Assembly (NCBI GenBank): GCA_050250895.1
Contig: JBFWNU010000001.1
Location: 1,096,008 to 1,160,007, forward strand
DNA from: Vulcanimicrobiota bacterium
Lineage (GTDB): Bacteria > Vulcanimicrobiota > Xenobia > Xenobiales > JADMJV01
Length of the DNA: 64,000 bases
Direction: 5' to 3'
Shown piece by piece: positions 27,721 to 49,990 of this stretch; positions within the stretch are counted from its first letter, which is position 1; the number at the start of each line of letters is the position of its first letter. The notes beneath the pieces were generated by a model. The model ran no database searches, had not been told where the DNA came from, and was given only the letters and a program-made list of their open reading frames with translations. Made by a program: the position numbers and the translations under genes.

Positions 27721-28755
27721 CTAGCGCACCTGGAATTCGAGCGTGCCGCGATCCCCAAACATCTGCTCGATCGCGATGCTGAGCGTGTCCTGGCCGGCCA
27801 CCGCCAACTTGGGATAGAGCACCAATCCGCTCACCTCTTGTCCCGGTTGCAGCAGACTATCGAGGGCCGGATCATAGCGCGAGGGCGCCAGCGGCCGATT
27901 GTCTGCGTTCATCATATACATATGCCACTTGAAGGGCTTGAGCGGGGCCTCTTTCACTCCGGTGTTGCGAACTCGCACCTCGAACACGGCGTAGCGGTCG
28001 ACCTGGCGCTCGGTGACCAGACGTTGCTTGAGCATCAGGGTCTCATCCAGATTCATCCCCTCGCGAGCGGCCAGATATTCGGCACAACGATCGACCAGGT
28101 ACTCATCCCAGTAAGTCACCGATACTTGAAGTCGGGTCCGCTGCGGTTCCCACGGATCATTGGTCTGAAATTGATGGATTACCGGAGGGGCCGCCATGCT
28201 GGCCAGCCAGAAAGGGTTCACCAAGCTGGCGCCGGTGGGGTCAAAGGCCGTGGCCGCATCGTAAAACTGGTACATTGTGTAGAGTTGGGCCCCGGTGTTG
28301 ACCGTCGACATCGCCGTGCTGGGGTGGGGGTGGGGGGTGACAAAATCTCTCGTATGCGTATTCTCGGTGAAAGCCCGATGGTAGCGCTCGCGCACCCGCT
28401 TGAGGTCTTCCCGGTCGGGTTTGATCGCCGAGGCCAGAGTCGGGCTGGCGGTGGCCGAGCTGTAGGCAGGCGGCGCGGTGAGGGTTACCAGGTCGCCGGG
28501 ATAGACCGCGGTCCCGTCGGGCAGGCGAGCCGTGGCTGAATACTCCGAGACCGATTCGACCACGGCCTCCCCCACTTTCTGGCCTTGATGAAACACCAAC
28601 CAGCGCTGGCCAGGAGTGACATTCTCCAGTTCACCCCGATTGAAGCGAAAGACCGGCCCGGTGGTTTCGAGTACGGTTCCGCCGTCGGCCAGGGCCATTG
28701 CTGGCAACAGCAGGGCCACCCAAACCAGGAGATATGTCAGTTGCCGAACTTGCAT
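27721..28755 (-). CDS. exported hypothetical protein (FlgT C-terminal-like and DUF4352-like domains)
   Basis: Signal peptide; NRG...V.PG..VGEAVV...GDLV pattern; C-terminal VRNTG...LQPGQEVSG Ig-like motif. Confidence 0.6.
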   Translation of the reverse strand: MQVRQLTYLLVWVALLLPAMALADGGTVLETTGPVFRFNRGELENVTPGQRWLVFHQGQKVGEAVVESVSEYSATARLPDGTAVYPGDLVTLTAPPAYSSATASPTLASAIKPDREDLKRVRERYHRAFTENTHTRDFVTPHPHPSTAMSTVNTGAQLYTMYQFYDAATAFDPTGASLVNPFWLASMAAPPVIHQFQTNDPWEPQRTRLQVSVTYWDEYLVDRCAEYLAAREGMNLDETLMLKQRLVTERQVDRYAVFEVRVRNTGVKEAPLKPFKWHMYMMNADNRPLAPSRYDPALDSLLQPGQEVSGLVLYPKLAVAGQDTLSIAIEQMFGDRGTLEFQVR

Positions 28756-28828
28756 CGCTTTCGGACGGGCCCCTTCAGGAGGAAACCTGCGCCAACATTA
28801 TGAAGCATGACAGTATCCCCTGACAAGA

Positions 28829-29416
28829 GTGAGGCCGTTGTCAACCACCACCCGTAAAGTGCGCCTCAAAAGGCGAGCACCTAAACGCGAGGTCGATCCG
28901 AAGAAAGCGGCCCTGGCTTTCGGGTCTCTCTTAATCTTGTGTATCGCCACCTTTTTCGTGGTCATCAACTATGTGGTCGAGCAAGATCAATCCAAGCTCA
29001 ATCGAACCGCCGACCTTGAATCCCAGGGCCTCTACTTCACCCTCGAAATGGATAAGTCTCGCTACAAGCTGGGCGAACCCATCGATGTCAAGCTGTCGGT
29101 ACGCAATATCACCTCGTCTCCTATCACGCTGAAGTTCGATCAAGACCAAGAATTCGATTTTCTGGTCCAGAAAGAGATGAACTTGCTCTTTGCCCAGGTG
29201 CCCATGAACGTCTGGCGCTTTTCCAACAAGCAGATTCCTCACGAGGACCCCCACAGCATTACCATTCCCCCCGGAAAGGTCAGGGTCTTTTCCGGCACCT
29301 GGGAGCAAGAAGACGCCAAGGGCAAGACGGTCCGGCCGGGTCAATACGTCATCACCGGCTATCTTCGCGCCGAGAATCGCAATGAAACCCTCCAGTTGCG
29401 CGGTGCCACCAAGTAA
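28829..29416 (+). CDS. membrane-anchored BsuPI (intracellular proteinase inhibitor)-like Ig domain protein
   Basis: Basic N-terminus plus TM; DKSRYKLGEP, Q.FDF, VWRFS and W...D..G..V.PG.Y patterns. Confidence 0.7.
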   Translation: MRPLSTTTRKVRLKRRAPKREVDPKKAALAFGSLLILCIATFFVVINYVVEQDQSKLNRTADLESQGLYFTLEMDKSRYKLGEPIDVKLSVRNITSSPITLKFDQDQEFDFLVQKEMNLLFAQVPMNVWRFSNKQIPHEDPHSITIPPGKVRVFSGTWEQEDAKGKTVRPGQYVITGYLRAENRNETLQLRGATK

Positions 29417-29457: not shown

Positions 29458-29836
29458 CTGGAGTAGGCTGGGTGACCGCGGAGATTCGTGGGAATCTTTG
29501 AGGAAAGTCCGGGCTCCATAGGGCAGGGCGCTGGATAACGTCCAGTAGGGGCGACCCTCAGGCTAGTGCCACAGAAATGAAGACCGCTAAGCCCCGGTAT
29601 CTGGGGCCAGCAAGGGTGCAACGGTGGGGTAAGAGCCCACCAGCAGCACGGTGACGTGCTGGCTAGGTAAACCCCGCTTGGAGCAAGACCGAATAGGGAA
29701 GCAGGTGCTCGACACCACTGGCGGCCCGTCAGAAGCTTCCGGGTAGCGTCGCTAGAGGTGGGTGGTAACACTCATCACAGATAGATGGTCACCTCCACCA
29801 CGGTGGAACAGAACCCGGCTTATAGGTCTGCTCCAG
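29458..29836 (+). ncRNA. rnpB: RNase P RNA, type A
   Basis: GAGGAAAGTCCGGGCTCC, AGTGCCACAGAAA, GGTAAACCCC..GGAGCAAG and AACAGAACCCGGCTTA conserved blocks; terminal P1 pairing CTGGAGTAGGC/GTCTGCTCCAG. Confidence 0.97.
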
Positions 29837-30929
29837 GCCTCACTTTTGCATAAAAGCGTCGGGTCAAAGACGCGACCCAACGTCCGGCCTCGAGATCATC
29901 AAGACGTTGGGTGATGATGAGGGCGTCCGAAATAAATTGCAGAAAAGCCCCTTGAGCGGAGTTGCGCACGGCGATATCCTCTAGCTCGGTGACCGGGATG
30001 CTCTGAGAGCGCACCGGCACTCCGAAGACGGTGGCGCGCACGCTGACCTGCTGCCGGTCGGCCACCAGCAGCACCCGATAGCCGGCCAACATCACCAGGG
30101 CGATGACCAACAGGCCGGCCAGGGCGTAGAAATAAAGATACTCTTTCTCCAGTCGAGCCAGATCCAACAGGGAGCGATTGCCCGTGGACTTGCCCAGGGG
30201 TAGCAGTGAAAAGCCGAACAACACCGCGAAAAGAACGCCTACTTGAAGGACCAGCTGGGCGCTCCAGAGGCGCCAGTGGAACTCCTGGCGCTCGCTCGAG
30301 AGCGTCTCTTTCACGGCGCAATCGGAGGGCTTGTCGACCTCCTGGCCGAGCAAGATCGGATGGCGATGAACCCGTTCAACAAAGGGCAGGTCAAGCTCTG
30401 ACCGTTCGATGCGCACATCCTTGCCGCCAGCCTTCTCGATGACCGGACAATTGATGGTCTTGGCTACCATCTCGGCCAGGGTGCGACTGGCCATCTGCTG
30501 TCCGACACGCTGGTCGAGGGTGTACTGGTTCTTTCCGTCCACGAGATTGACCAGCCAGACCTCGACCTGACGGCCGCCCCGCTCTTCCTCGATGGAGTAC
30601 AACCGAACCGCCGGTTGCTCGCTCCAGCCAAAGCGCATGCCAGGCCTGAAGAGCCCGTCCTTGACGGTGATGTTGGTCTGAGAGACGGTAATCTTCTTGC
30701 GCGAAAACAAGATCAGGACAACCCCGATCAGACCCATCCCGAGCGCCAGCAACAAGCCCTTGTTCCAATCATATTCGGTGGTCTCGAAGACCAGACGCAT
30801 GGTCAGAGCGTAGAGCGGAACCACCGCGAACACCGAGAGGAAAAGCAAAAAGACGCCGATGTCACGGTTGGCATCGGTGGGGATGGACAGCTCGGTGCTA
30901 TCCCCGCGCCTGGTCTTTTTGACGGCCAT
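29820..30929 (-). CDS. hypothetical membrane protein with two (2TM + soluble beta domain) modules
   Basis: Four hydrophobic helices in two pairs; ATG directly follows the upstream TAA. Confidence 0.75.
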   Translation of the reverse strand: MAVKKTRRGDSTELSIPTDANRDIGVFLLFLSVFAVVPLYALTMRLVFETTEYDWNKGLLLALGMGLIGVVLILFSRKKITVSQTNITVKDGLFRPGMRFGWSEQPAVRLYSIEEERGGRQVEVWLVNLVDGKNQYTLDQRVGQQMASRTLAEMVAKTINCPVIEKAGGKDVRIERSELDLPFVERVHRHPILLGQEVDKPSDCAVKETLSSERQEFHWRLWSAQLVLQVGVLFAVLFGFSLLPLGKSTGNRSLLDLARLEKEYLYFYALAGLLVIALVMLAGYRVLLVADRQQVSVRATVFGVPVRSQSIPVTELEDIAVRNSAQGAFLQFISDALIITQRLDDLEAGRWVASLTRRFYAKVRPGADL

Positions 30930-32192
30930 TTATCGGCCTACCATACAAACCGTGTTCACCTCTGTCAAGGGAGCGACTTCGCTATAGCTGAGCACCGGCA
31001 GGAAGGGAAAAGACGGCTCTAGCAGTCTGCGCAAAAACCGTCGCGGTTTAGGCGAACACAAAATCACGACCGGCAGGCTCTCGGCCGCCGCCTTCTCGAG
31101 CCCCCGGGCCACCGAACCCAGGATTTTCAGGCTCTCGTCGAGGTCAAGGTCAAGCCAAACGGCCGAGGACGACTCGCGCAACCCTCTCAAGATGGCTCTT
31201 TCGGCGGCTGGATCGAGCATCAAAGCGTGAAGACGACCGACCCGGTCGCTAAAACGGTTGGATAAATGATATCGAAAGGCCGAGCGGACATACTCGGTCA
31301 GCAGATCGGCATCTTCGGTGGCCTCGAGATGGTCCAAAATCGCCTCGAGGATCCCGGGCAGATCGCGAATGGACACCCTTTCGCGCAGCAGATTGCGTAA
31401 AATCTGACGCAACGCTCCCAAGGATAGGCGGTGAGGAAAAAGTTCCTTGTAGAGAGCTGAGTGGCTCTTCTTGACCACTTTAACCAGGGCTTCGACCTCG
31501 CGATAGCCGAGCAGCCGCCAGGCTTGAGCCTCGACCGCCTCGAGCAACGGCCGGGCCAAACGCGCCACCCCGTCGCCGGGCTCGAGTTCACTAGAGATGG
31601 CATCGACGCCTCGAATCCGCACTCTATAAGCCAAACCCTCCAGGGCCGGCTCCAGGCGCACCGGAATCGGCGAAAGCATCAAGCCAAATTCAAGTTCGAG
31701 ACGCTGGCGAGAAAGTTCGACCAACTCGTCGAGCCCTTCACTGGGAAAGCCCGGTCCCACCACCATCTCGATTTGAGCCAATTCTAACGTGGCGATCAAC
31801 TCAGAGGCTTTGACGCCAAGCCTCTTGGCGAGACTGGACGGCTTTTTACCCAGGGCCCGGACCAGCCGAATCGGAGTGGGCGCCTGATGACTCTTCTGGG
31901 CCGCGGCCAGGGCCAGGGCAACCATTCGGTAAAGACTTTCCGGAATAATTTGGTCCTGACGCAACTCTTTCATGATGTCAGGACCAAATTTGGCTGACTC
32001 TACAATGGGCAGGGCCAGCTCCTGGGCGCACCAGAGCATCTCTTCGAAACGGGCTGAAGTGGAAGCCAGGGCTACCACCGTCGGTGTCTGCCCTGGCTTG
32101 TAAGACAAAGCCACCGCATTCTTCTTGGCGTCCGTCAGGACGATTTCGGCTTCGCCGAGCGCCGACGGGTGGAAAGCTTTTTGTTTTGGCAA
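30930..32192 (-). CDS. soluble FlhB C-domain / FlhA C-domain (FHIPEP) fusion
   Basis: N-terminal AEIVLTDAKKNAVALSY..P.VVA...LPIVE...IPESLYRMVA (FlhB-C) followed by LRNLLRERVSIRDL, LTEYVR and LPVLSYSEV (FlhA-C); likely TTG start at 32192 with GGAGG SD (ORF track start 32237). Confidence 0.85.
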   Translation of the reverse strand: MPKQKAFHPSALGEAEIVLTDAKKNAVALSYKPGQTPTVVALASTSARFEEMLWCAQELALPIVESAKFGPDIMKELRQDQIIPESLYRMVALALAAAQKSHQAPTPIRLVRALGKKPSSLAKRLGVKASELIATLELAQIEMVVGPGFPSEGLDELVELSRQRLELEFGLMLSPIPVRLEPALEGLAYRVRIRGVDAISSELEPGDGVARLARPLLEAVEAQAWRLLGYREVEALVKVVKKSHSALYKELFPHRLSLGALRQILRNLLRERVSIRDLPGILEAILDHLEATEDADLLTEYVRSAFRYHLSNRFSDRVGRLHALMLDPAAERAILRGLRESSSAVWLDLDLDESLKILGSVARGLEKAAAESLPVVILCSPKPRRFLRRLLEPSFPFLPVLSYSEVAPLTEVNTVCMVGR

Positions 32193-32289
32193 GCTACCCC
32201 TCCGAGCTATTGAAATTCCTTCTCGGGGTTGCCTCAAACTCCTTTACTGGCCGGGAAAGGAACGGGGGGATAATGACGAACGTTCCCAG

Positions 32290-33513
32290 ATGTCCTGGCG
32301 CCCATCCCTGCTGATGCTGCTGATTCTGCTGCTGGCCAGCTGCAGTAAGCCTCCCGACCCCAATCGGGTGGTGCTGTGGACGGCCTTCGAGGGCAAGGAA
32401 CTGGCCGAACTCAAACAACTTGTGAACGAATTCGAGCAAGAGAGTTCACTGCACGTTCAGGTGCTCAAAGTGCCCTTCGATGCTCTCCAGAAGAAGTTTC
32501 TGGTGGCGGGACCCGCCGACCAGGGCCCGGACCTCTTGATCGGCCCCCAAGACTGGCTGGGGGTGTTCGCCACCGCCGGACTGCTCGAACCGGTGCCCGA
32601 AACCGTGCTCAGCAGCGAGCGCCGGGCCGATTTTATTCCCGTAGCCATCGAAGCCGTCACCTTCGAGGGCAAAGTCTATGCCGTACCCTTACTTTTGGAT
32701 TGTATCGCGCTGTTGCGCAACACCGAACTGGCTCCCCAGGCGCCGACCAGCCTGGAAGAACTGGTGAGCCAGGCCCAGAGCGTTCAACAGGGCTCGGTTC
32801 GAGGCTTCTATTACGAACTCAACAACTTCTACTTCTCCTGGCCCTTCCTGGCCGCTCACGGAGCTCACCTGTTCCACACCGAGGGAGGGCACCTCGATCC
32901 CTTTCAATTGGGCCTGGACGAACCCGCAGCCGTCAACGGTATGCAGTTCCTGGCCGACTTGCGCGGCAAGTACAACCTGATCCCCCTGGGAGCCACCAAC
33001 GATCTGGCCAAAAGCTTGTTCCTGGACAAGAAACTAGCCATGACCCTGGCCGGGCCGTGGATGATGGACTCGGTTCGCGAGGCACAAATACCCTACGTGG
33101 TCGAGCCGATTCCGCCTACGGCCGACGGAGGCGTGGCCGCCCCCTTCGTGGGGGCCACCGGCCTGATGCAGAGCGCCGGCAGTCGCAACCCCAGCGGAGG
33201 TGAAGCCCTCTACAAATTTCTCACCCGCACCGATTCGATCTATCGCTTGGCCCTGGCGGCGGGCCGAGCCCCGGCCGACAAGAACGCGTTGGAGAAAGCC
33301 AGCCAGCAACCGGTGGTCGGTCGAGACATTATGGCCTTTGCCCGCATCGCCGAACAGGGCACCCCGATGCCGAGCCACCCGGCCATGAATGCCGTCTGGG
33401 AACCGATGGAACAGGCTATCGACCTGGTCTCTTCGGGGCAGGTCGAACCCGCCCACCAGATGGAGCAGACCGAGAAACGAATCGTGACGAAGATTCGCTT
33501 CATGATGGAGTAA
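32290..33513 (+). CDS. maltose/maltodextrin-type ABC substrate-binding lipoprotein
   Basis: Lipobox LLASC; GPDLLIGPQDWLG, GKVYAVP, GPW and PMP..P.M..VW motifs. Confidence 0.88.
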   Translation: MSWRPSLLMLLILLLASCSKPPDPNRVVLWTAFEGKELAELKQLVNEFEQESSLHVQVLKVPFDALQKKFLVAGPADQGPDLLIGPQDWLGVFATAGLLEPVPETVLSSERRADFIPVAIEAVTFEGKVYAVPLLLDCIALLRNTELAPQAPTSLEELVSQAQSVQQGSVRGFYYELNNFYFSWPFLAAHGAHLFHTEGGHLDPFQLGLDEPAAVNGMQFLADLRGKYNLIPLGATNDLAKSLFLDKKLAMTLAGPWMMDSVREAQIPYVVEPIPPTADGGVAAPFVGATGLMQSAGSRNPSGGEALYKFLTRTDSIYRLALAAGRAPADKNALEKASQQPVVGRDIMAFARIAEQGTPMPSHPAMNAVWEPMEQAIDLVSSGQVEPAHQMEQTEKRIVTKIRFMME

Positions 33514-33514
33514 A

Positions 33515-34414
33515 GTGGACAAGAAGACCAATCAGCCATACCTTTACATTATGCCGGCTCTGGTCTTGATGACGGTGCTGTCGCTCTTGCCCAACGCCTA
33601 CTCGGTCTATCTGGCGTTCACCAATTTTAGCCTCTATCACTACACCGACTTCAACTTTGTAGGCCTAAAGAACTTCGGCAAGATCCTGGCTGGTCCTGAG
33701 CTTCAGACCTTTGCCAAGGTGCTGATCTGGACGCTGGCCTGGGCCGCCATCTCGGTGATGGCCAGCCTGGCCATCGGCCTGCTGCTGTCGATCCCCCTCA
33801 ATCGCGAAGACCTCAAGGGAGCCAAGGTCTACCGCACTCTGTTTATCGTACCCTGGGCCATTCCGGCCTTTATTTCGGTGCTGATGTGGCAGGGTTTGCT
33901 CAACTCGGACCAGGGCGCCTTCAACATGCTCCTTCAGGGCTTCGGTCAAGAGAAGATCGCCTGGCTGGATGACCCGGGCTGGGCTCGCTTCTCGGTCTTG
34001 CTGGTCAACATCTGGCTCGGCTACCCGTTCATGATGACGGTTTGCCTGGGAGCCTTGCAATCGATACCCAAAGAGATCTACGAAGCCGCCGATGTCGACG
34101 GCGCCAGCCCCTGGCTTCAGTTTCGAGCCCTGACACTGCCGTTGCTGCGCTCGGCCCTCGTCCCGGTGCTGGTCTCGAGCTTTGCTTTCAACTTCAACCA
34201 GTTCACCGCCATCTATCTGCTGACCGAAGGGGGTCCCACCGTGCCAGGCAGCGAGGCCGGGGCTACCGACATTCTGCTCACATACTCTTATAAGCTCGCC
34301 TTCGATCTCTATCAGTACGGCACCGCCTGCGCTTACGCCGTCTTTATCTTCTTGATCGTGGCCGCCCTGTCCGGGGCAAATTTCCGCCTCACCGGCGCTT
34401 TTGAGGACGAGTGA
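33515..34414 (+). CDS. carbohydrate ABC permease (MalF-like)
   Basis: PWAIPAFIS, WLGYPFMM and EAA loop YEAADVDGA. Confidence 0.9.
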   Translation: MDKKTNQPYLYIMPALVLMTVLSLLPNAYSVYLAFTNFSLYHYTDFNFVGLKNFGKILAGPELQTFAKVLIWTLAWAAISVMASLAIGLLLSIPLNREDLKGAKVYRTLFIVPWAIPAFISVLMWQGLLNSDQGAFNMLLQGFGQEKIAWLDDPGWARFSVLLVNIWLGYPFMMTVCLGALQSIPKEIYEAADVDGASPWLQFRALTLPLLRSALVPVLVSSFAFNFNQFTAIYLLTEGGPTVPGSEAGATDILLTYSYKLAFDLYQYGTACAYAVFIFLIVAALSGANFRLTGAFEDE

Positions 34415-35271
34415 TGACTAGAAAAAGCCCCTATACCGTCTATTTCTGGCACGCCTTCCTGCTGGCGGGACTGTCGGCGACGCTGATGCCGGCGTTTCTA
34501 GTCTTGATGGCGGCCCTGCGCAAGAAAGCGACCCTGGTATCGAGCACCATCATCCCCGGCCCCAACGAAGTGACGCTGGCCAACTTCTCGACGCTGCTGA
34601 CTCAGACACCGTTCTTGACCTGGATGGGTAACACGCTCATCTGCTCGACCATCGCCACGATCGCGGCCCTCCTGGTCACCACCCTGGCAGGGTATGCCTT
34701 CAGCCGCTTTCGCTTCTTCGGTCGCAAGAACGGGCTGTTGATCATGATTTTGCTGCAGATGTTTCCGGCCGCCATGAGCATGGTGGCCGTCTTTCGCATC
34801 CTCCAATACCTGGGTCCGATCACTGGGGGCCTGGTGGGCCTCAACAGCTTGATGGGTCTGTCGCTGGTTTACATCGGAGCCGGCATCCCGTTCAATACCT
34901 GGATGATCAAAGGCTATGTCGACGCCCTGCCCCGCGAGTTGGAAGAATCTGCCTACATCGACGGAGCCACCCCGACCCAAACCTTCCTCCAGATCATTCT
35001 TCCACTCATGGGACCCATTCTGGCCGTGGTGGCCGTGTTCAACTTCATCACGCCCTACTCCGACTTCATCTTTCCCTCGGTCTTGCTGTTCGAAGAGCAA
35101 CGCTACACCCTGGCCGTCGGTATGCAGGGCTTCATTTCCGGCAACTTCTCGGCCAATTGGACTCTCTTCGCGGCCGCCTCCATTCTGGGATCGTTGCCCA
35201 TCCTCGTGCTTTTTCTGTCGCTTCAGACCTTTCTCGTGCAAGGTTTGACGCAGGGTGCAGTGAAGGGATAA
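34411..35271 (+). CDS. carbohydrate ABC permease (MalG-like)
   Basis: YAFSRFRF.GRK, LEESAYIDGA and GLTQGAVKG motifs. Confidence 0.9.
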   Translation: MMTRKSPYTVYFWHAFLLAGLSATLMPAFLVLMAALRKKATLVSSTIIPGPNEVTLANFSTLLTQTPFLTWMGNTLICSTIATIAALLVTTLAGYAFSRFRFFGRKNGLLIMILLQMFPAAMSMVAVFRILQYLGPITGGLVGLNSLMGLSLVYIGAGIPFNTWMIKGYVDALPRELEESAYIDGATPTQTFLQIILPLMGPILAVVAVFNFITPYSDFIFPSVLLFEEQRYTLAVGMQGFISGNFSANWTLFAAASILGSLPILVLFLSLQTFLVQGLTQGAVKG

Positions 35272-36212: not shown

Positions 36213-37047
36213 CCTTGTCGCTTTAGTCCTCCTTTGCCTGACCGCCACCGCCGTCGCCGAAGACCTCAAGATTTCGGTTGCCGGCCCGGCCCGCGCTATC
36301 CGCGACCAGACCACCAGTCTGGTCGTTCGTCTTCAAGGGGGAACGCCTCCCCTTCGTTGGGAGTGGAACGTCGATGGCTACTCTGAGGCGGGCGATGAGG
36401 CCGAGTTCACCATGGCGGCCAAAGGCAAGGCCGAGCAAATGGAGTTCCATCTCAGGATCTGGGACCAGGCCGACTATCTTTCCGAGCCGTACGAGACCAG
36501 CTTTCCCCTGGAAGTCATCGCAGAGCCGCCCAAGCCGATCCGAGTGGTGCTAAAGTCCCACTGGTCGCGCGCCGAGGACGAAGTTTTGAGTCTCAGGCCC
36601 GAAGTGACCGGTGGCACTGGCCCTTTGCGCTATCAATGGTTGGTGGATGACCGCACCGTGACCGAACCGACCCTCGACCTTCCTCCGGGGCCGGCCGGTG
36701 ATTCGCTGGTCGTCCTGAGGATCTATGACCAGGGCTTGTATCAGGACCAGCCCCAGGAACTAAAGATCCGAATTCACACCCAGGCCCGTTTACAGGGGCG
36801 TATCGAAGGACCCGATCTGGTCATCGTTAACGATCCGCTGGAGTTTCGCGCGGTCATCGAGGGCGGCACCAAGCCCTACAAGTTCGTCTGGCAGTGGCCC
36901 ACCGGTAGTCGTGACGATGACGAGGTGTTGACGGGCCGCGTAGGGCCCGATACCGGGGAGCGCTGGATCAGGGTGCTGGTGACCGACTCGTCCAAGCCGC
37001 CCCAGGAGTTGCGCCTGGAAAAGACCTATCGGGCCGAGGCCCGCTAG
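36163..37047 (+). CDS. exported protein with three Ig/PKD-like repeats
   Basis: GGTPPLRWEW, GGTGPLRYQW and GGTKPYKFVW repeats; signal-like N-terminus; start uncertain. Confidence 0.7.
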   Translation: MSTSSCKSCAARARTNSLVALVLLCLTATAVAEDLKISVAGPARAIRDQTTSLVVRLQGGTPPLRWEWNVDGYSEAGDEAEFTMAAKGKAEQMEFHLRIWDQADYLSEPYETSFPLEVIAEPPKPIRVVLKSHWSRAEDEVLSLRPEVTGGTGPLRYQWLVDDRTVTEPTLDLPPGPAGDSLVVLRIYDQGLYQDQPQELKIRIHTQARLQGRIEGPDLVIVNDPLEFRAVIEGGTKPYKFVWQWPTGSRDDDEVLTGRVGPDTGERWIRVLVTDSSKPPQELRLEKTYRAEAR

Positions 37048-37643
37048 AAATCCCTTCGGCCCTGAAGGGCCCGGCCTAGCGTTACCTCGTCGGCATACTC
37101 GAGATCGGAACCCATCGGCAGGCCCTGCGCCAGGCGGGTAACCCGCACCGGACCAGAAGCCAATTGGCGATGCAAGAAAAGCGCGGTGGCCTCGCCGGCC
37201 ACGGTGGGATTGGTGGCCAGGATGACCTCTTGGATGTTCTCTCGCCTCACCCGATCCAGCAACGAATCGATGCGCAACCGGTCTGGCCCGATGCCGTCCA
37301 TTGGCGAGATCAAGCCACCCAGAACGTGATAACGACCGCGGAACTCATTGGTCCGCTCGAGAGCCGCGATGTCACGAGGATCACTCACCACACAGAGCAG
37401 ACCTGCATCGCGGCGCGAATCCGAGCAAATCGAGCAGAACTCTCGCTCGGTCAGGTTGCCACAGCGGGCACAGTCGTGAATCTTGCGCTTGACATCGAGC
37501 ATCGACTCAGCCAGTTCTTCGACCAACTCCTGACGGGCGTGCAACAAGAAGAAAGCCAGGCGATGGGCACTCTTGGGTCCGATCGTAGGAAGCTCCATTA
37601 GAGCCTCCACCAGGCGCTCTACCGGCTGCGGAAATTCATACAT
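37044..37643 (-). CDS. recR: recombination protein RecR
   Basis: LPTIGPKSA.RL, C4 zinc finger, TOPRIM domain, GSDLEYAD. Confidence 0.97.
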   Translation of the reverse strand: MYEFPQPVERLVEALMELPTIGPKSAHRLAFFLLHARQELVEELAESMLDVKRKIHDCARCGNLTEREFCSICSDSRRDAGLLCVVSDPRDIAALERTNEFRGRYHVLGGLISPMDGIGPDRLRIDSLLDRVRRENIQEVILATNPTVAGEATALFLHRQLASGPVRVTRLAQGLPMGSDLEYADEVTLGRALQGRRDF

Positions 37644-37661
37644 CGCCAGCCAGATCCTGGG

Positions 37662-37982
37662 CTAGAGCAAACCGGGAGGAATGGGTAAACCCTGAGTGAG
37701 TTCGGAAACCTTTTGCGAAGAGAGCTCCTTGGACTTCTCCACAGCGTCCTTGATGGCCGTCAGGACGAGGTCTTCGAGCATCTCGACATCTTCGGGATCG
37801 ACCACCTCAGGGTTGATCTTGACCGACTTGATCTCTTGATGGCCGTTGACAACGACTTTGACCATTCCCTGGCCGGCGGTACCTTCCACCGTCACGTCGG
37901 CCAGTTCTTCCTGAATTTGGCCCATCGAAGCCTGCAGCTTCTGCTGCATCTTCTGCATCTTTCGCATCATCTGTCTCTGCAT
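37662..37982 (-). CDS. ybaB: YbaB/EbfC nucleoid-associated protein
   Basis: Q/M-rich N-terminus; GMVKV; DVEMLEDLVL motif. Confidence 0.95.
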   Translation of the reverse strand: MQRQMMRKMQKMQQKLQASMGQIQEELADVTVEGTAGQGMVKVVVNGHQEIKSVKINPEVVDPEDVEMLEDLVLTAIKDAVEKSKELSSQKVSELTQGLPIPPGLL

Positions 37983-37997
37983 GGGGTTCCTCCTTTA

Positions 37998-38396
37998 TTA
38001 CTTCTTGCCCATGGCGAAGACCTGATGAATCGTATCCACCAGCTCATCCAGGTTAAAGGGCTTGACCAAATACGAGGTGGCACCCTTCTGATAACCCGTC
38101 ATCACGTCCTCGGACTGATCTTTGGCCGTCAGCATGATGACCGGAATGTCCGCCGTTTGCGCGCCGGCACGAATCTTATCGAGAACCTCGAAGCCGTCCA
38201 TGCCTGGCATCATCACGTCGAGCACCACCAGATCGGGAATCGACTCATCTACCTTCTCCAGGGCTTCAAAACCCGAGGAGGCGGTAGTCACATCAAAGTT
38301 CTCCATCTCGAGATAGGTCGCCAACGACCGCAAAATGTGGGGCTCATCGTCCACCACCAAAACTTTCTGCCCTTCAGACACGGCTGTCTCCTCCAT
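37998..38396 (-). CDS. single-domain response regulator receiver
   Basis: VVDDE, PDLVVLDVMMPGMDG, LTAK and YLVKPF motifs. Confidence 0.93.
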   Translation of the reverse strand: MEETAVSEGQKVLVVDDEPHILRSLATYLEMENFDVTTASSGFEALEKVDESIPDLVVLDVMMPGMDGFEVLDKIRAGAQTADIPVIMLTAKDQSEDVMTGYQKGATSYLVKPFNLDELVDTIHQVFAMGKK

Positions 38397-38398
38397 CC

Positions 38399-40480
38399 TT
38401 AGTCCACAATCTCGCCCGCAAACAAGCCGGACGCCCTTCTCACCAATTCGTCATGCTCTTCATCGTTGGAGCGCACGGTCTTGGCACCATCAACCCGACA
38501 CTCCACCCGCACTCTACGTCCCAAGGTGCTGGCTGCCAAGCCTTCCAACACACTGCGAGACTTCAGAATCGTGTCTCGATGCCAGTCGTAGCCGTCAGGC
38601 AGTCCCAACACGACCTCTTCTTCGCCCAACTCGGTGACCTTGGCGTCAGCCAACACAGCGTGCAGTCGCATGTCGTGGTCTCGGACTGCATTCATCAGAC
38701 CCATCCAGAACTCTTTCTTGCCTGGCGCCCGACCATCCGAGCCACGGCTGGGCTCGACCCGACGAAGCCCCGCCGCCTCTGGCTCTCGTTTGCGCTGAGG
38801 CGACTCCGGCCGCTGAGGAGTGCTCGCCTGCCGCGACTCCGGCCGCTCGCCTGAATGAGGAACTCTCTCGTGCCCAGCCTCGGGCCGCTCGCTTCGCTGA
38901 GGCGCTCGTTCCAGAGAGGGTTCGGGCCGCTCAGGCGCTCTCTCCTGGCGCTCCGCTCGCCGAGGCTCTTGGACAGCCTCGGGCCGCTCCTCCCGCTGAG
39001 GATTTCTGCCTTGGAAAGCCTCGGGTCGCTCACCTCGCTCAGGCATCGCTTCGCGCGAAGGCTCCGGCCTCTTCTCCGACTGAGGCGCTCTTTCCGGGGG
39101 AGGCTCCGGCCTCTTCTCCGGCTGAGGCGCTCTTGCCGGCGAAGGCTCCGGCCTCTTCTCCGACTGAGGCGCTCTTTCCAGGGGAGGCTCCGGCCTCTTC
39201 TCCGGCTGAGGCGCTCTTGCCGGGGGAGGCTCCGGCCTCTTCTCCGGCTGAGGCGCTCTTTCCGGGGGAGGCTCCGGCCTCTTCTCCGGCCGGTCCCGCA
39301 CCGGCACGTCTACCGTCTTCTGACTCCCATTCGCCATGCGCTCTTCCAGGGCGGAGATGCGGGCCTCGAGGCCGTTTAGTCCTGGCTCGGCCGAGGGGGT
39401 AGCCAGCCGAACCAGGGTCAACTCCCATAAAAGCTTGGCCTGGCGGCCTTCTCTCACTTCGGCCGAAAGCTCCATTCCGGCTCGAATCCAGTGCATCAGG
39501 TCAACCAGAGAGACGGCGCTGGCCAATCTTTCCAAACTCTCGCGCTCCTCGACCGCCATCTGCTCGAAGGTGCTATCGGGAGCCTTCACCTTGACCAGCA
39601 TCACCAGGCGCAAATGCTCGAGAAAGGCAGAAGCCAGTCGCTTCAAATCGCGCCCCTGAGCGTTAAGCTCGTGCAAGAGCATCAGCAGACCGCCGGCTTC
39701 GCGAGCCCTGAGAGCCATCACCAGACGCTCCATCACCTGATAGCCGACGGTCCCCAGCAGTTCGAGCACCGGCTCGAGTTCGACCCGTTCTCCACAGAAC
39801 GTCACCGCCTGCTCGAAGAGCACCAGGGCGTCGCGCAGCGAACCATCGGCGGCTCGGGCCAACTGGTCACCGGCCTCACTCGCCAGTTCGACCCCTTCGC
39901 TCTCGGCGATTAAGGCCAGCCGCGCTCGGATCTCGGCCACCGAAAGCGGTCGAAAGTCATAGCGTTGGCAGCGCGAGAGAATGGTCGGCGGCAACTCGTG
40001 TGGATGAGTCGTGGCCAGAATGAAGACCACGTGCGAGGGGGGCTCTTCGAGGGTCTTCAAAAGCGCATTGAACGAAGAGGCCGAGAGCTTGTGGACCTCG
40101 TCGATGATATAGACTTTGACCCGAGCCGTGACCGGGGCGAAGTGAACCTTGTCGACAATGAAGTCACGAATCTTGTCGACCTGGGTGTGAGAGGCCGCAT
40201 CGATCTCGAAGACATCGAGACTATTGCCCGAGGCGATGGAACGGCACTGATCGCACTCGTTGCAGGGCTCAAGACCCGGACCATTCTCGCAGTTGAGTGC
40301 CTTGGCGAAGATGCGGGCGCTGCTGGTCTTGCCGGTGCCGCGCGGACCACAGAAAAGATAAGCCCTGGCGGGAGAGTCGCTGAGAAGAACATTCTGCAGG
40401 GTGCGAACCACCGACTCCTGGCCCACCAGGTCCTGGAAGCGCTGAGAGCGCCATTTCCTAAACAGAGAAACGCTGGGCAT
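38399..40480 (-). CDS. dnaX: DNA polymerase III subunit gamma/tau
   Basis: GPRGTGKTS, C4 zinc motif, IIDEVH, SRC; long Pro/Glu/Arg repeat linker. Confidence 0.96.
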   Translation of the reverse strand: MPSVSLFRKWRSQRFQDLVGQESVVRTLQNVLLSDSPARAYLFCGPRGTGKTSSARIFAKALNCENGPGLEPCNECDQCRSIASGNSLDVFEIDAASHTQVDKIRDFIVDKVHFAPVTARVKVYIIDEVHKLSASSFNALLKTLEEPPSHVVFILATTHPHELPPTILSRCQRYDFRPLSVAEIRARLALIAESEGVELASEAGDQLARAADGSLRDALVLFEQAVTFCGERVELEPVLELLGTVGYQVMERLVMALRAREAGGLLMLLHELNAQGRDLKRLASAFLEHLRLVMLVKVKAPDSTFEQMAVEERESLERLASAVSLVDLMHWIRAGMELSAEVREGRQAKLLWELTLVRLATPSAEPGLNGLEARISALEERMANGSQKTVDVPVRDRPEKRPEPPPERAPQPEKRPEPPPARAPQPEKRPEPPLERAPQSEKRPEPSPARAPQPEKRPEPPPERAPQSEKRPEPSREAMPERGERPEAFQGRNPQREERPEAVQEPRRAERQERAPERPEPSLERAPQRSERPEAGHERVPHSGERPESRQASTPQRPESPQRKREPEAAGLRRVEPSRGSDGRAPGKKEFWMGLMNAVRDHDMRLHAVLADAKVTELGEEEVVLGLPDGYDWHRDTILKSRSVLEGLAASTLGRRVRVECRVDGAKTVRSNDEEHDELVRRASGLFAGEIVD
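39061..39290 (-). repeat. 42-bp coding tandem repeat in dnaX (PEKRPEPPPERAPQ), about 5.5 copies
   Basis: GCTCCGGCCTCTTCTCCG recurs at 39061, 39103, 39145, 39187, 39229 and 39271; degenerate copies extend to about 38800. Confidence 0.95.
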
Positions 40481-40543
40481 GCGGTCGCGCTTTACTACCA
40501 CCCCGAAGGATTCGATCCCTGCCCTGGACTGGACTCCCTGGGC

Positions 40544-41440
40544 CTACAACACTCCGAGGGACGGTCGCGCTTCAACCCGCTCGCCGAGGTAGATCAAGAG
40601 TTCCACCAATCGTTCCAGCTCCTGGGTCGAGGCATAGTTCAACTCGATCTTGCCCTTGCCCCGAGAGCCAGGTCGGATATGCACATGAGTGCCCAGCTGG
40701 CGGGTGAGGTGGTCCTGAATCTCCATCCAATCGGGCGACAGCTTCGCCTGCCTGGCCAGGGATGACTTCTTGGCTTCTTCCTGGAGGTCACGAACCAGCT
40801 TCTCGGTTTGGCGAACCGATAGGGCTCGCTGCGTGATCATTGCCCACACTCGCATCTGCTGACTCTCGCTATCTAGACCGAGCAACGCCCGGGCATGGCC
40901 GGCCGAAAGGTCGCCGGACTCCACTTCACGACGAATCGGGTCAGGCAGCGCCAGCAGACGCAGGGTATTGGAAATGGCCGGTCGGCTCCGCCCCAGACGC
41001 GTAGAAAGTTGATCCTGGGTCAACTTATGCTCGCTGAGCAGGTAGGAGTAAGCCCGTGCCTCTTCGATAGGATTGAGGTCCTCACGCTGGATGTTCTCGA
41101 TGAGCGCCACCTCGAGCAGCTCGACGTCGGCCATCTCGCGAACGATGGCCGGGATAGCCTCGAGCCCCGCTAGCCGAGCGGCGCGACAGCGTCGTTCGCC
41201 CACTACCAAACGGTATCCGTCAGCCTCACGGGTACAGACCACCGGCTGGACCACCCCGTGTTCCCGAATGGACTCCGCCAACTCTTCGAGCTTCTCCTGA
41301 TCGAAGCTCTGGCGGGGCTGCAGAGGATTGGCGCGGATCTCCGCCAGGGGTAGATCCAGGATCGACTGGGCGTTGGTGGGGACCTTATGGCTATCCGACA
41401 AGAGCGCGGACAGGCCTCTTCCGAGTGCTTTCTTTTTCAC
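40544..41440 (-). CDS. parB: chromosome partitioning protein ParB/Spo0J
   Basis: KKALGRGLSALL, VVGERR.RA, ENIQREDLNPIEEA motifs; HTH. Confidence 0.96.
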   Translation of the reverse strand: MKKKALGRGLSALLSDSHKVPTNAQSILDLPLAEIRANPLQPRQSFDQEKLEELAESIREHGVVQPVVCTREADGYRLVVGERRCRAARLAGLEAIPAIVREMADVELLEVALIENIQREDLNPIEEARAYSYLLSEHKLTQDQLSTRLGRSRPAISNTLRLLALPDPIRREVESGDLSAGHARALLGLDSESQQMRVWAMITQRALSVRQTEKLVRDLQEEAKKSSLARQAKLSPDWMEIQDHLTRQLGTHVHIRPGSRGKGKIELNYASTQELERLVELLIYLGERVEARPSLGVL

Positions 41441-42194
41441 GGGCTAGAACCTCCTTGGCCAAACTAAGATAGTGAGTAGCACCTGCCGAGCGGCGGTCGT
41501 AAGCTAAGATCGACTGACCAAAACTGGGCGCCTCGGCCAACTTGACGTTGCGCGGAATCACGGTTTTGAATACGGTAGACCCGAAGTGGCCTCGCACCTC
41601 GGCCGCTACCTGGTCAGACAAATTGAGACGGGCGTCATGAAGCGTGAGCAGGACCCCAAAAATCGACAGACCGGGGTTGAGGTGAGACCGAACCATCTCG
41701 ATCACCTCGAGCAACTGGGTGATCCCCTCGAGCGCATAAAACTCGCATTGGATCGGCACCAGCAAGCCGTCCGCAGCGGTGAGAGCGTTCATGGTCAAAA
41801 GACCCAGCGAGGGGGGACAGTCGACTAGAACAAAGTCATAGTCATCGACCACCGGTTCGAGCAAACGCTGCAGCCGGGTCTCGCGAGAGACAGCGGATAC
41901 CATCTCTATCTCGGCCGCCGCCAACCGCAGAGTGGCTGGCACGAGCCAGAGACTGGACTGCTCGGTGGTCTGAATCAGCTCGGCCACAGCCGAGCCCTTG
42001 CACAGACCATCATAGATGCACCCTTCCAGCGCGCTCTTATCGACCCCGAGCCCACTGGTGGTGTTGCCCTGGGGATCGGCATCCACCAACAGCACTTTTT
42101 TGCGCTTCTGGGCCAGGGCGGCGCCGAGATTCACGGCCGTCGTCGACTTTCCGACGCCCCCCTTCTGGTTGGTGATTGCAAGTATCCTGGCCAT
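41391..42194 (-). CDS. parA: chromosome partitioning ATPase ParA/Soj
   Basis: NQKGGVGKST, DPQGN, DCPPSLG and IPRNVKLAEAPS motifs. Confidence 0.96.
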   Translation of the reverse strand: MARILAITNQKGGVGKSTTAVNLGAALAQKRKKVLLVDADPQGNTTSGLGVDKSALEGCIYDGLCKGSAVAELIQTTEQSSLWLVPATLRLAAAEIEMVSAVSRETRLQRLLEPVVDDYDFVLVDCPPSLGLLTMNALTAADGLLVPIQCEFYALEGITQLLEVIEMVRSHLNPGLSIFGVLLTLHDARLNLSDQVAAEVRGHFGSTVFKTVIPRNVKLAEAPSFGQSILAYDRRSAGATHYLSLAKEVLAREKESTRKRPVRALVG

Positions 42195-42238
42195 AGCATG
42201 CCTACCCATCTGGAATGAAATTCAGTGAAACTTGAAGA

Positions 42239-42254
42239 TGTTTCACGTGAAACA
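42239..42254. promoter_or_regulatory. parS centromere site
   Basis: Perfect palindrome TGTTTCACGTGAAACA immediately upstream of parA. Confidence 0.95.
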
Positions 42255-42286
42255 TTCTCCTGGCCCCACAAGATTACCTTCAACCG

Positions 42287-42991
42287 TCAGATCAGAGGGT
42301 GCTTGGCCGGTTGCCCCGGACGTCGAGGGTAACGATCCGGACTGGGTCCCGTCTTGCGTACCTCGACCAGGCAGTAGCTTTTGTCGAAAAGGCTATACTC
42401 CCGAACCACCCGCACCTCGCCCGATAGAAGTTGCAGGGCGCGGGCCGCCTCCTGAATTTCCTGAGCAGCCCGGGGTCCTTTATAAGCTAGTAAGAGGCCA
42501 TCTTTCTTCAACAAAGGGATGCCCAACTCGATCAAAGTAGCCAGACTGGCTACCGCTTTGGCCGTCACCACCTCGAAGGCGCCTCGATAACTCCGGTCAT
42601 GAGCCACTTCTTCCGAGCGACCCTGGAGCACTACCACGTTGGCCAAAGACAACTCTTCGATGACCTCTCGCAAAAAGATACACTTCTTGCCGTTAGCTTC
42701 CAGCAGGGTCAGATCGAGATCCGGACGGAATACCGCCAGCGGGACCCCGGGCACCCCACCACCCGAACCCAGGTCCACCACCCGAGCGCCCGGTGGAAAG
42801 CAACCCTCGCCCGCCAGAGAATCGACGACCAACTCCCTGGCCATGGCCGCCTCCTCGCGCAGGGCGGTCACCCCGGCCCGCCGACCGATGTCGGCTACCA
42901 ATTCCAGATAACGAACCAGACGAGCCAGGGTCTGCCCATCGAAGCTGAGAGCTAACTGCTCTAGACCTTCCTCGAGAGCTTGCCTAAACAC
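42287..42991 (-). CDS. rsmG: 16S rRNA m7G527 methyltransferase
   Basis: [10 protein letters not shown] and YPRRPG.P motifs; follows mnmG. Confidence 0.94.
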
Positions 42992-46739: not shown

Positions 46740-46801
46740 GCTACCCCTCTCTCCAGCTTCCCGCTGTCAAAATTCCTATCCCCACCCGGGAATCCCTCCC
46801 G

Positions 46802-47482: not shown

Positions 47483-47495
47483 TAACTCGAAACTC

Positions 47496-48040: not shown

Positions 48041-48042
48041 CG

Positions 48043-48177: not shown

Positions 48178-48269
48178 AGCACTCCTCCGCCTTGTGGGCT
48201 GGCTCAACAGTATAGGAGCAGCTCAAGACGATGTCAAGGTGGACCTCCGGGCAGGCTCGAACCCGTTTT

Positions 48270-49965: not shown

Positions 49966-49990
49966 GCTATCGTCCATCCGGTCGAACCTC

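Follow-up and report, generated by a model that had tools for sequence, protein, structure and literature searches.

[quoted passage not shown] There is next to no doubt about the gene's identity and architecture; it is a real gene and under purifying selection. It lies on the minus strand of the 64,000-nt stretch of DNA that was analysed (the window), and all coordinates below are positions within that window. As to its role, the fusion may, as a tentative reading, be a platform close to the membrane but without a channel, at which early flagellar substrates or FliK dock.

Architecture of the fusion protein

The longest frame of the open reading frame spans 30930..32237 on the minus strand (435 aa counted from its first TTG). 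The likely start codon of the fusion is the TTG at 32192, with which the 420-aa database copy of the protein (P0002) agrees, as do the coordinates given in the preliminary description of this DNA. In the closest orthologue (L025), AGGAGG is followed after 6 nt by a TTG at the equivalent place. The gene and its parts are as follows:

30930..32192, minus strand: the FlhB-C/FlhA-C (delta-D2) fusion gene, coding for 420 aa and ending in TAA, from the open reading frame list, Pfam and the start context
32190..32205, minus strand: TTG start (32192-32190), preceded at 6 nt by the ribosome-binding site GGAGG, by direct reading
31893..32174, minus strand: FlhB C-terminal domain of the FlhB-CC type, residues ~7-100, from Pfam, PDB profile matches and the AlphaFold2 model
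32121..32132, minus strand: DAKK in place of the NPTH autocleavage motif, residues 21-24, from alignment with FlhB1 and FlhB2 of the genome
31773..31892, minus strand: linker, residues ~101-140, the block of lowest confidence in the model (pLDDT 48-64)
31578..31772, minus strand: first part of FlhA-C D1, residues ~141-205, where profile positions 134-202 align to residues 44-119 of the 3mix chain
31569..31586, minus strand: junction at the missing D2, residues ~203-208, where 4 profile positions (203-206) stand against 3mix residues 120-170
31512..31577, minus strand: second part of FlhA-C D1, residues ~206-227, with a helix at 209-227 in the model
31272..31511, minus strand: FlhA-C D3, residues ~228-307, containing two invariant elements, the LRNLLRE block (262-271) and D277; its limits are approximate, the published D3 (504-583) having been transferred through profile-alignment ranges
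30933..31271, minus strand: FlhA-C D4, residues ~308-420, with P381, R384, R389, P396, E405 and P408 among its invariant residues

Pfam recognises both halves on the same chain, as the preliminary description of this DNA had proposed. FHIPEP matches with 7.3e-49 and 167 bits (cut-off 29.1), covering residues 227-423 of the 435-aa frame and positions 457-654 of the 657 in the profile, plus a second short stretch. Bac_export_2 matches with 3.6e-8 and 33.5 bits (cut-off 24.4; residues 26-111 of the same frame against profile positions 247-333 of 335). The chain is without a transmembrane (TM) segment, its maximum Kyte-Doolittle 19-residue mean being 1.15 compared to 3.16 in the genome's own FlhA. 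The AlphaFold2 model (pLDDT 81.9, pTM 0.72) resembles FlhA-C and SctV-C structures in Foldseek, with 3mix at an E-value of 2.8e-24 (TM 0.81 on the target) and SctV-C nonamers next.

In the model, the FlhB-C domain consists of strands 17-20, 26-30, 38-43 and 63-66 and helices 46-58 and 85-99 (block pLDDT 78-88). A profile built from the 25 family members reaches 7e-12 and below for solved FlhB chains, and 7e-12 to 1e-6 for the solved C-domains of FlhB, EscU and YscU; on an FlhB chain of 383 aa, residues 257-349 correspond to profile positions 8-98. With the C-domains of FlhB and SctU (3b0z, 3b1s, 3bzt), the fusion shares a recognisable domain and the hydrophobic pocket positions, but it lacks both the 4-TM N-domain, which wraps FliPQR in FlhB, and the long FlhB-CN helix. 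Furthermore, it joins FlhB-C to FlhA-C covalently at 1:1. The native gate contains one FlhB per nine FlhA.

Both FlhBs of the genome have NPTH at the autocleavage site, and alignment with them bears out the earlier reading that DAKK has taken its place in the fusion. None of the 25 family members has N-P there (N occurs in 2 and P in 1, never together). Since NPTH has been replaced by a variable loop (0/25 with the motif), no autocleavage switch is expected in the fusion, and the protein is predicted to be non-cleavable, as had been claimed.

The substrate pocket of FlhB, the binding site of the gate-recognition motif (GRM), is formed by A286, P287, A341 and L344, with A/V/S, A/V/S/G/I and L/I/V tolerated, according to PMC9307174. 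On a mapping to Salmonella residue numbers based on HMM ranges and alignment to the genome's own FlhBs, the equivalent of P287 is P and that of A341 is A in 25/25 members, L344 is represented by L in 22 and by I, M and V in one each, and the residue preceding the conserved P is T in 19, A in 3 and V, I or P in one each. At the sequence level, the substrate-docking pocket of FlhB is retained in the fusion family.

Stand-alone FlhB-CC proteins (FlhX/YlqH, TIGR00789) are likewise soluble, FlhB-CC-like and without NPTH. The fusion matches this family weakly, scoring 25.4 bits where 117.35 are required, and differs from it in its 420 aa and in being joined to FlhA-C. Its FlhB-C domain is self-contained, because the strand preceding the cleavage site is kept, unlike in the FlhX/YlqH type. 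The genome also has a stand-alone gene of that type (G000:C1:1291253-1291829), immediately after a FliK-like gene; Helicobacter FlhX is able to replace FlhB-CC.

The linker is moderately conserved in the family alignment and, by position only, would be equivalent to FlhA's own linker (FlhA-L). Behind it, the first part of D1 is modelled with strands 141-145, 178-180, 188-193 and 196-202 and helix 154-169. The alignment to 3mix is taken up again at residues 171-381 by profile positions 207-417. Since 3mix residues 120-170 are skipped in this way, about 51 residues of that structure are without a counterpart in the fusion, which agrees with the claim that D2 has been deleted and that D1 runs into D3. 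On a 692-aa FlhA chain, the family profile resumes at residue 481. As given in PMC5916509, D2 of Salmonella FlhA comprises residues 435-483 and holds D456 and F459, two of the three named chaperone-contact (dimple) residues, while the contacts of the FlhA-C ring are D1-D3 and D3-D3. D3 and D4 are well kept, as previously described, and the LRNLLRE block of D3 is invariant in the family.

Compared to the cytoplasmic domains of FlhA and SctV (3mix, 3a5i, 7amy, 4a5p), D1, D3 and D4 are shared in sequence and fold, including the D3 block LRNLLRE..SIRDL. However, the fusion lacks the 8-TM N-domain with the FHIPEP loop (profile ~1-320), has an FlhB-C domain at its N-terminus where FlhA has a membrane tether, and is without D2 (~50 aa) and its chaperone dimple residues. 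NCBIfam scores it higher as FlhA (147.7 bits) than as SctV (129.8 bits), the former being far under the cut-off of 772.1 for the FlhA equivalog TIGR01398. The FliR-FlhB fusion (NF009411), which matched weakly via the FlhB part, provides a precedent for two touching export-gate proteins encoded as one chain, but that protein sits in the membrane and works as a gate subunit, whereas the present fusion is without any membrane part.

Conservation, selection and origin of the family

The 25 full-length homologues share 35-64% identity with the fusion and have lengths of 401-490 aa with an intact frame. Related loci were found with a 9-row alignment of the family. In all, 15 independently assembled genomes have the fusion; judging from the titles of related records, most belong to Xenobia/Eremiobacterota. 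Among 41 relatives, it is patchily distributed (13/41), and it was not found in g3 (0/8), in family f3 (0/19) or in G004, an assembly that is 96% complete. Given this patchiness, the fusion is dispensable for flagella. A supposed split form in G040 was rejected, the gene being merely cut by a contig end. In databases, the family proteins are named 'FHIPEP family type III secretion protein' or 'hypothetical protein', and no paper describing the FlhB-C/FlhA-C fusion architecture was found in the literature searched (main texts outside subscription journals). Six DNA sequencing runs contain 0.05-0.07 of the sampled sequence words, and no RNA run is listed.

For six pairs with dS of 0.40-0.91, the overall dN/dS is 0.039-0.069, pairs with dS >2 or undefined having been left out. 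Close pairs show similarly low values by part, with 0.02-0.08 for FlhB-C, 0.04-0.07 for FlhA-C and 0.02-0.11 for the linker. There is hardly any probability that the gene is what remains of a decaying flhBA operon, or an artefact of assembly or annotation. Truncated flagellar paralogues are often pseudogenes, and the gene does lie outside the flagellar clusters; against this stand the intact frame and length range of the homologues, the low dN/dS, the independent assemblies, a ribosome-binding site and coupling that are conserved, and a confident predicted fold. As far as sequence evidence goes, decay or artefact is refuted. On the three points that could have undone the preliminary description, the FlhB-C match is real, the architecture extends over 15 genomes and ~21 clusters at 50% identity, and selection is purifying.

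In a quick IQ-TREE analysis, the 25 fusion members come out as a single clade among flagellar FlhAs, with a long stem and an SH-aLRT of 100. The tree comprises 64 of 66 rows, the HTH and TM-FliG_N paralogues having been excluded with <150 profile positions matched. The stem amounts to 0.83 changes per column, and the clade is far from both FlhAs of the genome. Most likely, the fusion originated from a duplicated flagellar flhB-flhA pair, of which both membrane domains were then lost, since its domain order mirrors the operon order of the genome, flhB then flhA.

These relationships bear on the main idea of the preliminary description, that the fusion is a poison or regulatory subunit. Its FlhA-C part would join, stack on or cap the canonical nonamer, bringing in an uncleavable FlhB-C and removing chaperone sites, such that export is braked or locked in early mode. 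We consider this quite improbable. It would fit with D3 and D4, which form the ring contacts or adjoin them, being the best-kept parts, with the LRNLLRE block being conserved in the genome's FlhAs as well, and with FlhA2 of the genome being the best canonical FlhA against the D3-D4 profile of the fusion (212 bits). It would also fit with the failure of uncleavable FlhB variants to switch specificity, which PMC9307174 states for autocleavage mutants. However, a closed ring of nine membrane-tethered subunits has no obvious slot for a soluble tenth, and the long stem of the clade, together with a D3-D4 identity of 37-41% to the canonical FlhAs of relatives, argues against mixed rings.

Genomic context and related FlhA-C proteins

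In agreement with the earlier observation, the window contains no flagellar or T3SS genes, as judged by Pfam on 47 further open reading frames and by genome searches with FHIPEP, Bac_export_2, FliP, flagellin and Flg_hook. The oriC/housekeeping region harbours the fusion gene, and ~330 kb separate it from the nearer flagellar cluster. The check for canonical flhA and flhB that had been suggested revealed two canonical flhBA pairs in the genome (2 FlhA, 2 FlhB), along with 2 FliP, flagellin and 3 FliK-like matches. In addition, there are seven other soluble FlhA-C paralogues, none of them in a flagellar context and one carrying an HTH_3 DNA-binding domain. At least two FHIPEP matches are found in 41/41 relatives, and up to 19 in one genome. 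Canonical FlhA is present in all 15 fusion genomes checked, full-length in 13 and as cut-off matches in two incomplete assemblies (G022, G024); this co-occurrence has no discriminating power, because FlhA is present in all 41 relatives. A tie between the fusion and the possession of two canonical FlhAs was rejected: a single full-length FlhA is seen in G016, G020 and G041, which have the fusion, and two each in G005, G007 and G009, which do not.

Two further features of the window flank the fusion gene:

29820..30929, minus strand: gene of TM369, a lineage-specific protein of 369 aa with four TM helices plus two PH/PTB-like domains on the cytoplasmic side; next gene downstream of the fusion
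32193..32287, no strand assigned: divergent intergenic region of ~95 nt that separates the fusion gene from the gene of a sugar-binding lipoprotein (likely ATG 32288)

By direct reading, the fusion stop and the TM369 start abut in a TAAATG junction, and TM369 is immediately downstream of the fusion in 14/15 genomes. The two genes therefore appear to form a co-transcribed operon, and the fusion is probably translationally coupled to TM369. The ribosome-binding site and the coupling junction are conserved among orthologues. No other neighbour is conserved, the remaining ones differing between lineages. TM369 itself is found in 38/41 relatives, including fusion-less ones, and G041 has the fusion without TM369, so that the pairing is obligate in neither direction. 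A modelled complex of the fusion and TM369 gave an ipSAE of 0.00 in both runs, which, being without controls, speaks neither for nor against binding.

The TM segments of TM369 are at 21-49, 55-78, 220-248 and 263-292. Its AlphaFold2 model (pLDDT 83.2) has a seven-stranded beta sandwich with a C-terminal helix cap. VIA-align relates the C-terminal half to PH, PTB and FERM-F3 folds (Z up to 10.2), residues 1-162 to EROS, a TM hairpin with a PH domain (Z 9.0 over 146 residues), and TM369 to the bacterial PH domain 3hsa (Z 7.5). The wide search returned Z-scores of 10.2-7.3 over 50 rows, of which rows 1-20 and 37 are PH, PTB, FERM-F3 or PH-like by title. Foldseek returned EROS alone (1.4e-3), and Pfam, including the bPH families, gave no credible match for TM369 and ten orthologues at E-values up to 5. 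The modelled structure places TM369 in the PH-like superfold, as fold likeness only.

A GAATTT-containing motif lies in the divergent intergenic region, ~25 nt ahead of the fusion start; by eye, it was seen in 10/14 upstream regions. In 14 orthologues, the 200 nt ahead of the gene contain no match to the sigma-28-like or sigma-54-like consensus, and a lone CCGATA hexamer lies upstream in one of them (L036). For sigma-70-like sites, none scored in the 32193..32287 region, and one was found in the 3' end of the fusion, shortly before TM369, which corresponds to chance (1 vs 0.6 expected).

FlhA-C has been combined with other domains repeatedly in this lineage, namely with HTH_3, with TM plus FliG_N, or with uncharacterised N-domains, and such promiscuity suggests that it may serve purposes other than export. 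Among the other D2-less FlhA-C proteins, P0148, P0156 and P0170 are the closest; they carry FliG_N, the domain binding the MS-ring protein FliF. P0215 combines HTH_3 with a D2-less FlhA-C, P0225 and P0227 are full-length TM FlhAs without D2, and P0213, a singleton on a 2659-bp contig, joins a D2-less FlhA-C to an AAA+ domain of the SpoVK/CbbX/EccA type, which is not the flagellar ATPase type. The other D2-less architectures share the D2 excision with the fusion (single-stretch alignment, profile ~130-417), but all of them lack the FlhB-C domain. No literature or names were found for these other architectures, and one source calls P0148 'FliG'; a metagenome scan for P0148 returned a 2.9-kb contig only. 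The claim that the fusion is chaperone-blind holds insofar as D2 and two of the three contact residues are missing, but it carries less weight since D2 has also been lost in full-length FlhAs and in other fusions. The TM369 partner, the canonical flhBA pairs and seven paralogues, the retained FlhB pocket and the loss of D2 elsewhere had been missed in that description.

A scaffold outside flagella is conceivable as well, though rather doubtful. In such a scaffold, FlhA-C would be a general oligomerising or ligand-sensing module serving whatever TM369 does at the membrane, e.g. by forming a ring platform beneath this PH-domain membrane protein, with the FlhB-C pocket binding another short hydrophobic peptide. 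TM369 is the sole conserved neighbour of the fusion and is class-wide without a known flagellar relative or Pfam match; the seven soluble paralogues outside a flagellar context, including the HTH_3 protein, and the non-flagellar type of the AAA+ domain in P0213 point in the same direction. However, all four pocket positions of FlhB-C are within the range tolerated by real FlhB, the sister D2-less proteins are joined to FliG_N, a flagellar basal-body domain, and the fusion is seen in canonical-FlhA genomes only (15/15, two of the FlhA matches being cut off). P0213, moreover, is the singleton mentioned above.

Possible role and significance

As a docking platform, the fusion would use its FlhB-C pocket to dock FliK or the gate-recognition motif that early subunits of the rod/hook type carry, while its D2-less FlhA-C would be unable to take chaperone-late-substrate complexes, which dock at the D1-D2 dimple. 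If the D1-D3 and D3-D3 contacts still form a ring, nine FlhB-C domains would lie on its membrane-facing side; in the native apparatus, the density of FlhB-C is found on this side of the FlhA-C ring. Early substrates could then be held, queued or titrated, and export could be tuned in organisms with two export gates. The platform is supported by the kept pocket, the lost D2 dimple residues, the canonical FlhA in fusion genomes, the FliG_N-fused relatives and the TM369 operon. Against it stand the distance of ~330 kb from the nearer flagellar cluster and the lack of a flagellar neighbour, as well as the patchy distribution, the non-obligate TM369 pairing, the promiscuous use of FlhA-C in this lineage and the missing sigma-28 and sigma-54 consensus upstream. 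Furthermore, the loss of D2 need not signal an early-only role, because D2-less full-length FlhAs exist (P0225, P0227).

A more far-reaching proposal, which we regard as unlikely, is that the fusion self-assembles as a nonameric ring with nine FlhB-C domains on the membrane side and, held by TM369, sorts, stores or senses GRM proteins without secretion, within a wider radiation of FlhA-C in Xenobia. It would then be a free-standing, channel-less 'export-gate cytoplasmic face'. The radiation would have wired a modular FlhA-C to HTH, MS-ring-binding FliG_N, AAA+ and membrane modules, forming a cytoplasmic signalling and assembly network made from export-gate parts.

The position of FlhB-C relative to the FlhA-C ring in the intact apparatus, like the cooperation of the two in recognising and switching substrates, has been glimpsed recently at low resolution (preprint 10.64898/2026.06.13.732081). 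A natural, soluble 1:1 fusion of FlhB-C and FlhA-C, conserved to 35% identity, is a possible construct for structural and binding studies, and its architecture, together with the proposed ring geometry, would make it a natural 'Rosetta stone' of the FlhB-C/FlhA-C contact. In addition, the family shows that FlhA-C can be kept by selection without D2. Taken together, the fusion and the expansion of soluble FlhA-C paralogues in this lineage point to the use of export-gate parts beyond the gate.

Domain composition of the fusion

[quoted passage not shown] Its gene and the adjoining TM369 gene, encoding a 369-aa protein, are located as follows:

From 32237, minus strand: open frame of the fusion in the ORF list
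30930-32192, minus strand: fusion gene
29820-30929, minus strand: TM369 gene

The start codon with the best support is a TTG at 32192, preceded by a GGAGG 6 bases upstream, and the closest orthologue has this layout too. The resulting 420-aa protein is present in public collections (P0002). Both domains named in the preliminary description are found on one chain. Pfam matches FHIPEP, the FlhA family, at 7.3e-49 over the C-terminal third of the profile only, and Bac_export_2, the FlhB family, at 3.6e-8, above the curated cut-off and over profile positions 247-333 of 335 only. NCBIfam concurs, scoring flagellar FlhA (147.7 bits) over injectisome SctV (129.8 bits), although each score falls far short of its equivalog cut-off. 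No hydrophobic segment occurs in the fusion (maximum 19-residue Kyte-Doolittle mean 1.15 versus 3.16 for the genome's own FlhA), in line with the earlier claim that transmembrane (TM) domains are absent, and the chain is shown to be soluble, as judged from its sequence.

The N-domains of 25 family members were aligned with the C-domains of the two canonical FlhBs of the genome. NPTH, the FlhB autocleavage motif, is present in both canonical proteins, and the fusion carries DAKK at that site (residues 269-272 of a 383-aa FlhB chain by profile-to-PDB ranges), so that the replacement proposed earlier is borne out by the genome's own FlhBs. The former NPTH columns are variable among the 25 members, with N in 2/25 and P in 1/25, never jointly. 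The FlhB-C domain is shown to be self-contained, as it retains the strand leading up to the old cleavage site and lacks NPTH; with the motif missing across the 25 members, the fusion is also shown to be uncleavable at the level of sequence prediction, as had been claimed. PMC9307174 describes a hydrophobic FlhB pocket, formed by A286, P287, A341 and L344, that receives the gate-recognition motif found on early substrates. These four positions are kept in the family as T/A/V/I/P, P (25/25), A (25/25) and L/I/M/V (25/25).

The family profile aligns with Bacillus subtilis FlhA-C (3mix) in two pieces, with ~51 chain residues skipped and replaced by only 4 profile positions, and picks up again at residue 481 of the 692-aa FlhA chain. 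According to PMC5916509, D2 is an insert in D1 with limits at residues 435-483, carrying 2/3 of the export-chaperone contact residues and having no share in ring contacts. In the AlphaFold2 model of the fusion (pLDDT 81.9, pTM 0.72), the D1 hairpin runs directly into the next helix, and the model matches FlhA-C and SctV-C structures (3mix, E 2.8e-24). Both the NPTH-site change and the absence of D2, a domain previously described as apparently deleted, are thus confirmed. D3 and D4, said to be well kept, are highly conserved across the family. The preliminary interpretation is partly supported: the chain is soluble, uncleavable and D2-less, with ring formation and gating as predictions.

Functional FlhA or FlhB family membership is ruled out, as tests for the two membrane domains, for D2 and for NPTH all came back negative; identity with FlhX/YlqH was likewise rejected. 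Gate parts are also joined in the FliR-FlhB fusion, a precedent which, unlike the present fusion, is a working membrane subunit. The literature searched holds no description of an FlhB-C/FlhA-C fusion or of expansions of soluble FlhA-C paralogues. The available part of an Eremiobacterota genomics paper (PMC9259500) mentions neither, and its supplements, outside the search, might list such genes.

Distribution, selection and origin

A word-indexed search retrieved 25 full-length homologues of 401-490 aa with 35-64% identity, and in an exhaustive search of 1.84 billion representatives ~21 clusters (50% identity) matched the whole length of the fusion profile in a single stretch. The window's genome (9.5 Mb, 17 contigs, 99.6% complete) was compared within a set of 41 related genomes; related public records are labelled Candidatus Xenobia, Vulcanimicrobiota or Eremiobacterota, a few bearing other automatic labels. 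Full-length fusions occur in 12/41, together with one copy truncated at a contig end. The gene is present in genera g1 (2/2), g2 (5/6), g4 (5/5) and g10 (1/1); among these 41 relatives it was not found in g3 (0/8) or the small-genome family f3 (0/19). Two genomes beyond the 41 (loci L035 and L036) bring the total to 15, and the architecture is therefore not unique to this assembly.

Across six orthologue pairs (dS 0.40-0.91) the fusion has a dN/dS of 0.039-0.069, which speaks against neutral decay. The ratio is equally low in each part: 0.02-0.08 in FlhB-C, 0.02-0.11 in the linker and 0.04-0.07 in FlhA-C. The fusion is a live gene, and the chance that it reflects decay or an artefact is negligible.

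The 25 fusion members form one clade (SH-aLRT 100) in a quick maximum-likelihood tree built from 64 rows of the D3-D4 region. The clade has a long stem within an unresolved flagellar FlhA set, which indicates a single origin of the family. In both canonical pairs of the genome flhB immediately precedes flhA, and we infer that the gene arose most simply by duplication of an flhBA pair, with both membrane domains then removed through in-frame deletion.

The TM369 partner and its neighbourhood

The TAA of the fusion abuts the ATG of TM369 (TAAATG). TM369 has four hydrophobic helices arranged as two hairpins, and its model (AF2 pLDDT 83.2) places a beta-sandwich and a closing helix after each. TM369 has no Pfam family match. 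In structure searches its first module matches EROS, a TM hairpin with a PH domain (Z 9.0; Foldseek E 1.4e-3), and its second matches PH/PTB/FERM-F3 folds (Z up to 10.2).

In 14/15 genomes TM369 is the next gene downstream of the fusion, with a spacing of 0 to ~20 nt, and all other neighbours vary between genomes. The exception is L035 (genome G041), where ispH stands next to the fusion and TM369 was not found anywhere in the genome. TM369 itself occurs in 38/41 relatives and stands without the fusion at the three loci examined in fusion-less genomes (G003, G004, G033). G033 keeps the order of a sugar-transporter SBP and TM369 seen in fusion genomes, the two being adjacent with no fusion gene between them. 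The dependence is one-sided. We consider a non-flagellar scaffold role linked to TM369 rather unlikely.

At one locus (L033, G012:C82:10879-11986) the TM369 orthologue is broken across two frames, with tblastn giving two pieces and a TAA within the match; a frameshift, sequencing error or pseudogene may account for this. Some of the synteny flanking the operon is kept in relatives, and at 10/14 orthologous loci a GAATTT-containing motif (mostly GGAATTT) was seen by eye 25-60 nt ahead of the fusion start; in g2 genomes it lies, again by eye, within a TTCGGAATTTGTTCCCGAA-like inverted repeat. The window also covers the replication-origin neighbourhood, with the cumulative GC skew minimum at ~48-50 kb.

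27721-29416 and 32288-35271: partly kept synteny, comprising a BsuPI-family proteinase-inhibitor-like gene, an unassigned secreted protein of 344 aa and a divergently oriented sugar ABC transporter (SBP and two permeases)
32210-32235, minus strand, and upstream regions of L025-L037: GAATTT motif, by eye
37044-51448: origin neighbourhood, with the minus-side genes mnmE, mnmG, rsmG, parA, parB, dnaX and recR
48556-49965: dnaA
50276-51448: dnaN

Related export-gate proteins and a possible role

A check for canonical genes, suggested earlier, found full-length FlhA and FlhB in two copies each, paired side by side, along with two FliP, flagellin and three FliK-like matches. At G000:C1:1291253-1291829 (L110:8253-8829), the third of these FliK-like matches (Flg_hook) sits in a frame of 534 aa, and a stand-alone YlqH/FlhX-like FlhB-C gene lacking NPTH comes immediately after it. 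Seven further FlhA-C proteins lack the FlhA membrane domain; all seven keep D2, and no flagellar genes lie beside them in this genome. Their N-terminal parts are HTH_3, a multi-TM region with FliG_N, or domains without assignment.

Contigs C1, C6, C7 and C8 (L105-L109): further FlhA-C proteins
L106:13808-14935: HTH_3 with FlhA-C
L108:7604-10606: multi-TM region, FliG_N and FlhA-C, 1001 aa
L109:9611-11209: D1-D2-only fragment with unassigned C-terminal region

At least two FHIPEP matches occur in 41/41 relatives. A typical relative has one full-length FlhA and one soluble FlhA-C of ~500 aa, even in genomes of 2.2-2.9 Mb, whereas as many as 19 matches are reached in large genomes. Outside the lineage, several other D2-less FlhA-C architectures occur among the representatives searched, in public metagenomes:

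P0148, P0156, P0170: with FliG_N
P0215: with HTH_3
P0225, P0227: inside full-length membrane FlhAs
P0213: fusion-family member, FlhB-C and FlhA-C with a SpoVK/CbbX/EccA-type AAA+ (singleton, 2.7-kb contig)

In the intact Salmonella apparatus, a preprint (10.64898/2026.06.13.732081) places an FlhB-C-sized density on top of the FlhA-C nonamer, on the side that faces the membrane. In the fusion, FlhB-C is on this side too, tethered where FlhA-C has its N-terminal side. We tentatively favour, as a possibility short of even, a channel-less copy of the cytoplasmic face of the gate that tunes flagellar export. The protein would probably be oligomeric and might sit near the membrane, held with or by TM369. 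It may dock early-type substrates or FliK, chaperoned late substrates would not dock, and flagellar export would thereby be buffered or tuned. The fusion might otherwise be a poison or capping subunit on the canonical ring, which seems improbable; the remaining probability falls to an explanation not yet conceived. For specialists in flagella and type III secretion, the fusion is of use mainly as a naturally occurring construct of the contact between FlhB-C and FlhA-C, and as a way into an unexplored radiation of export-gate domains.
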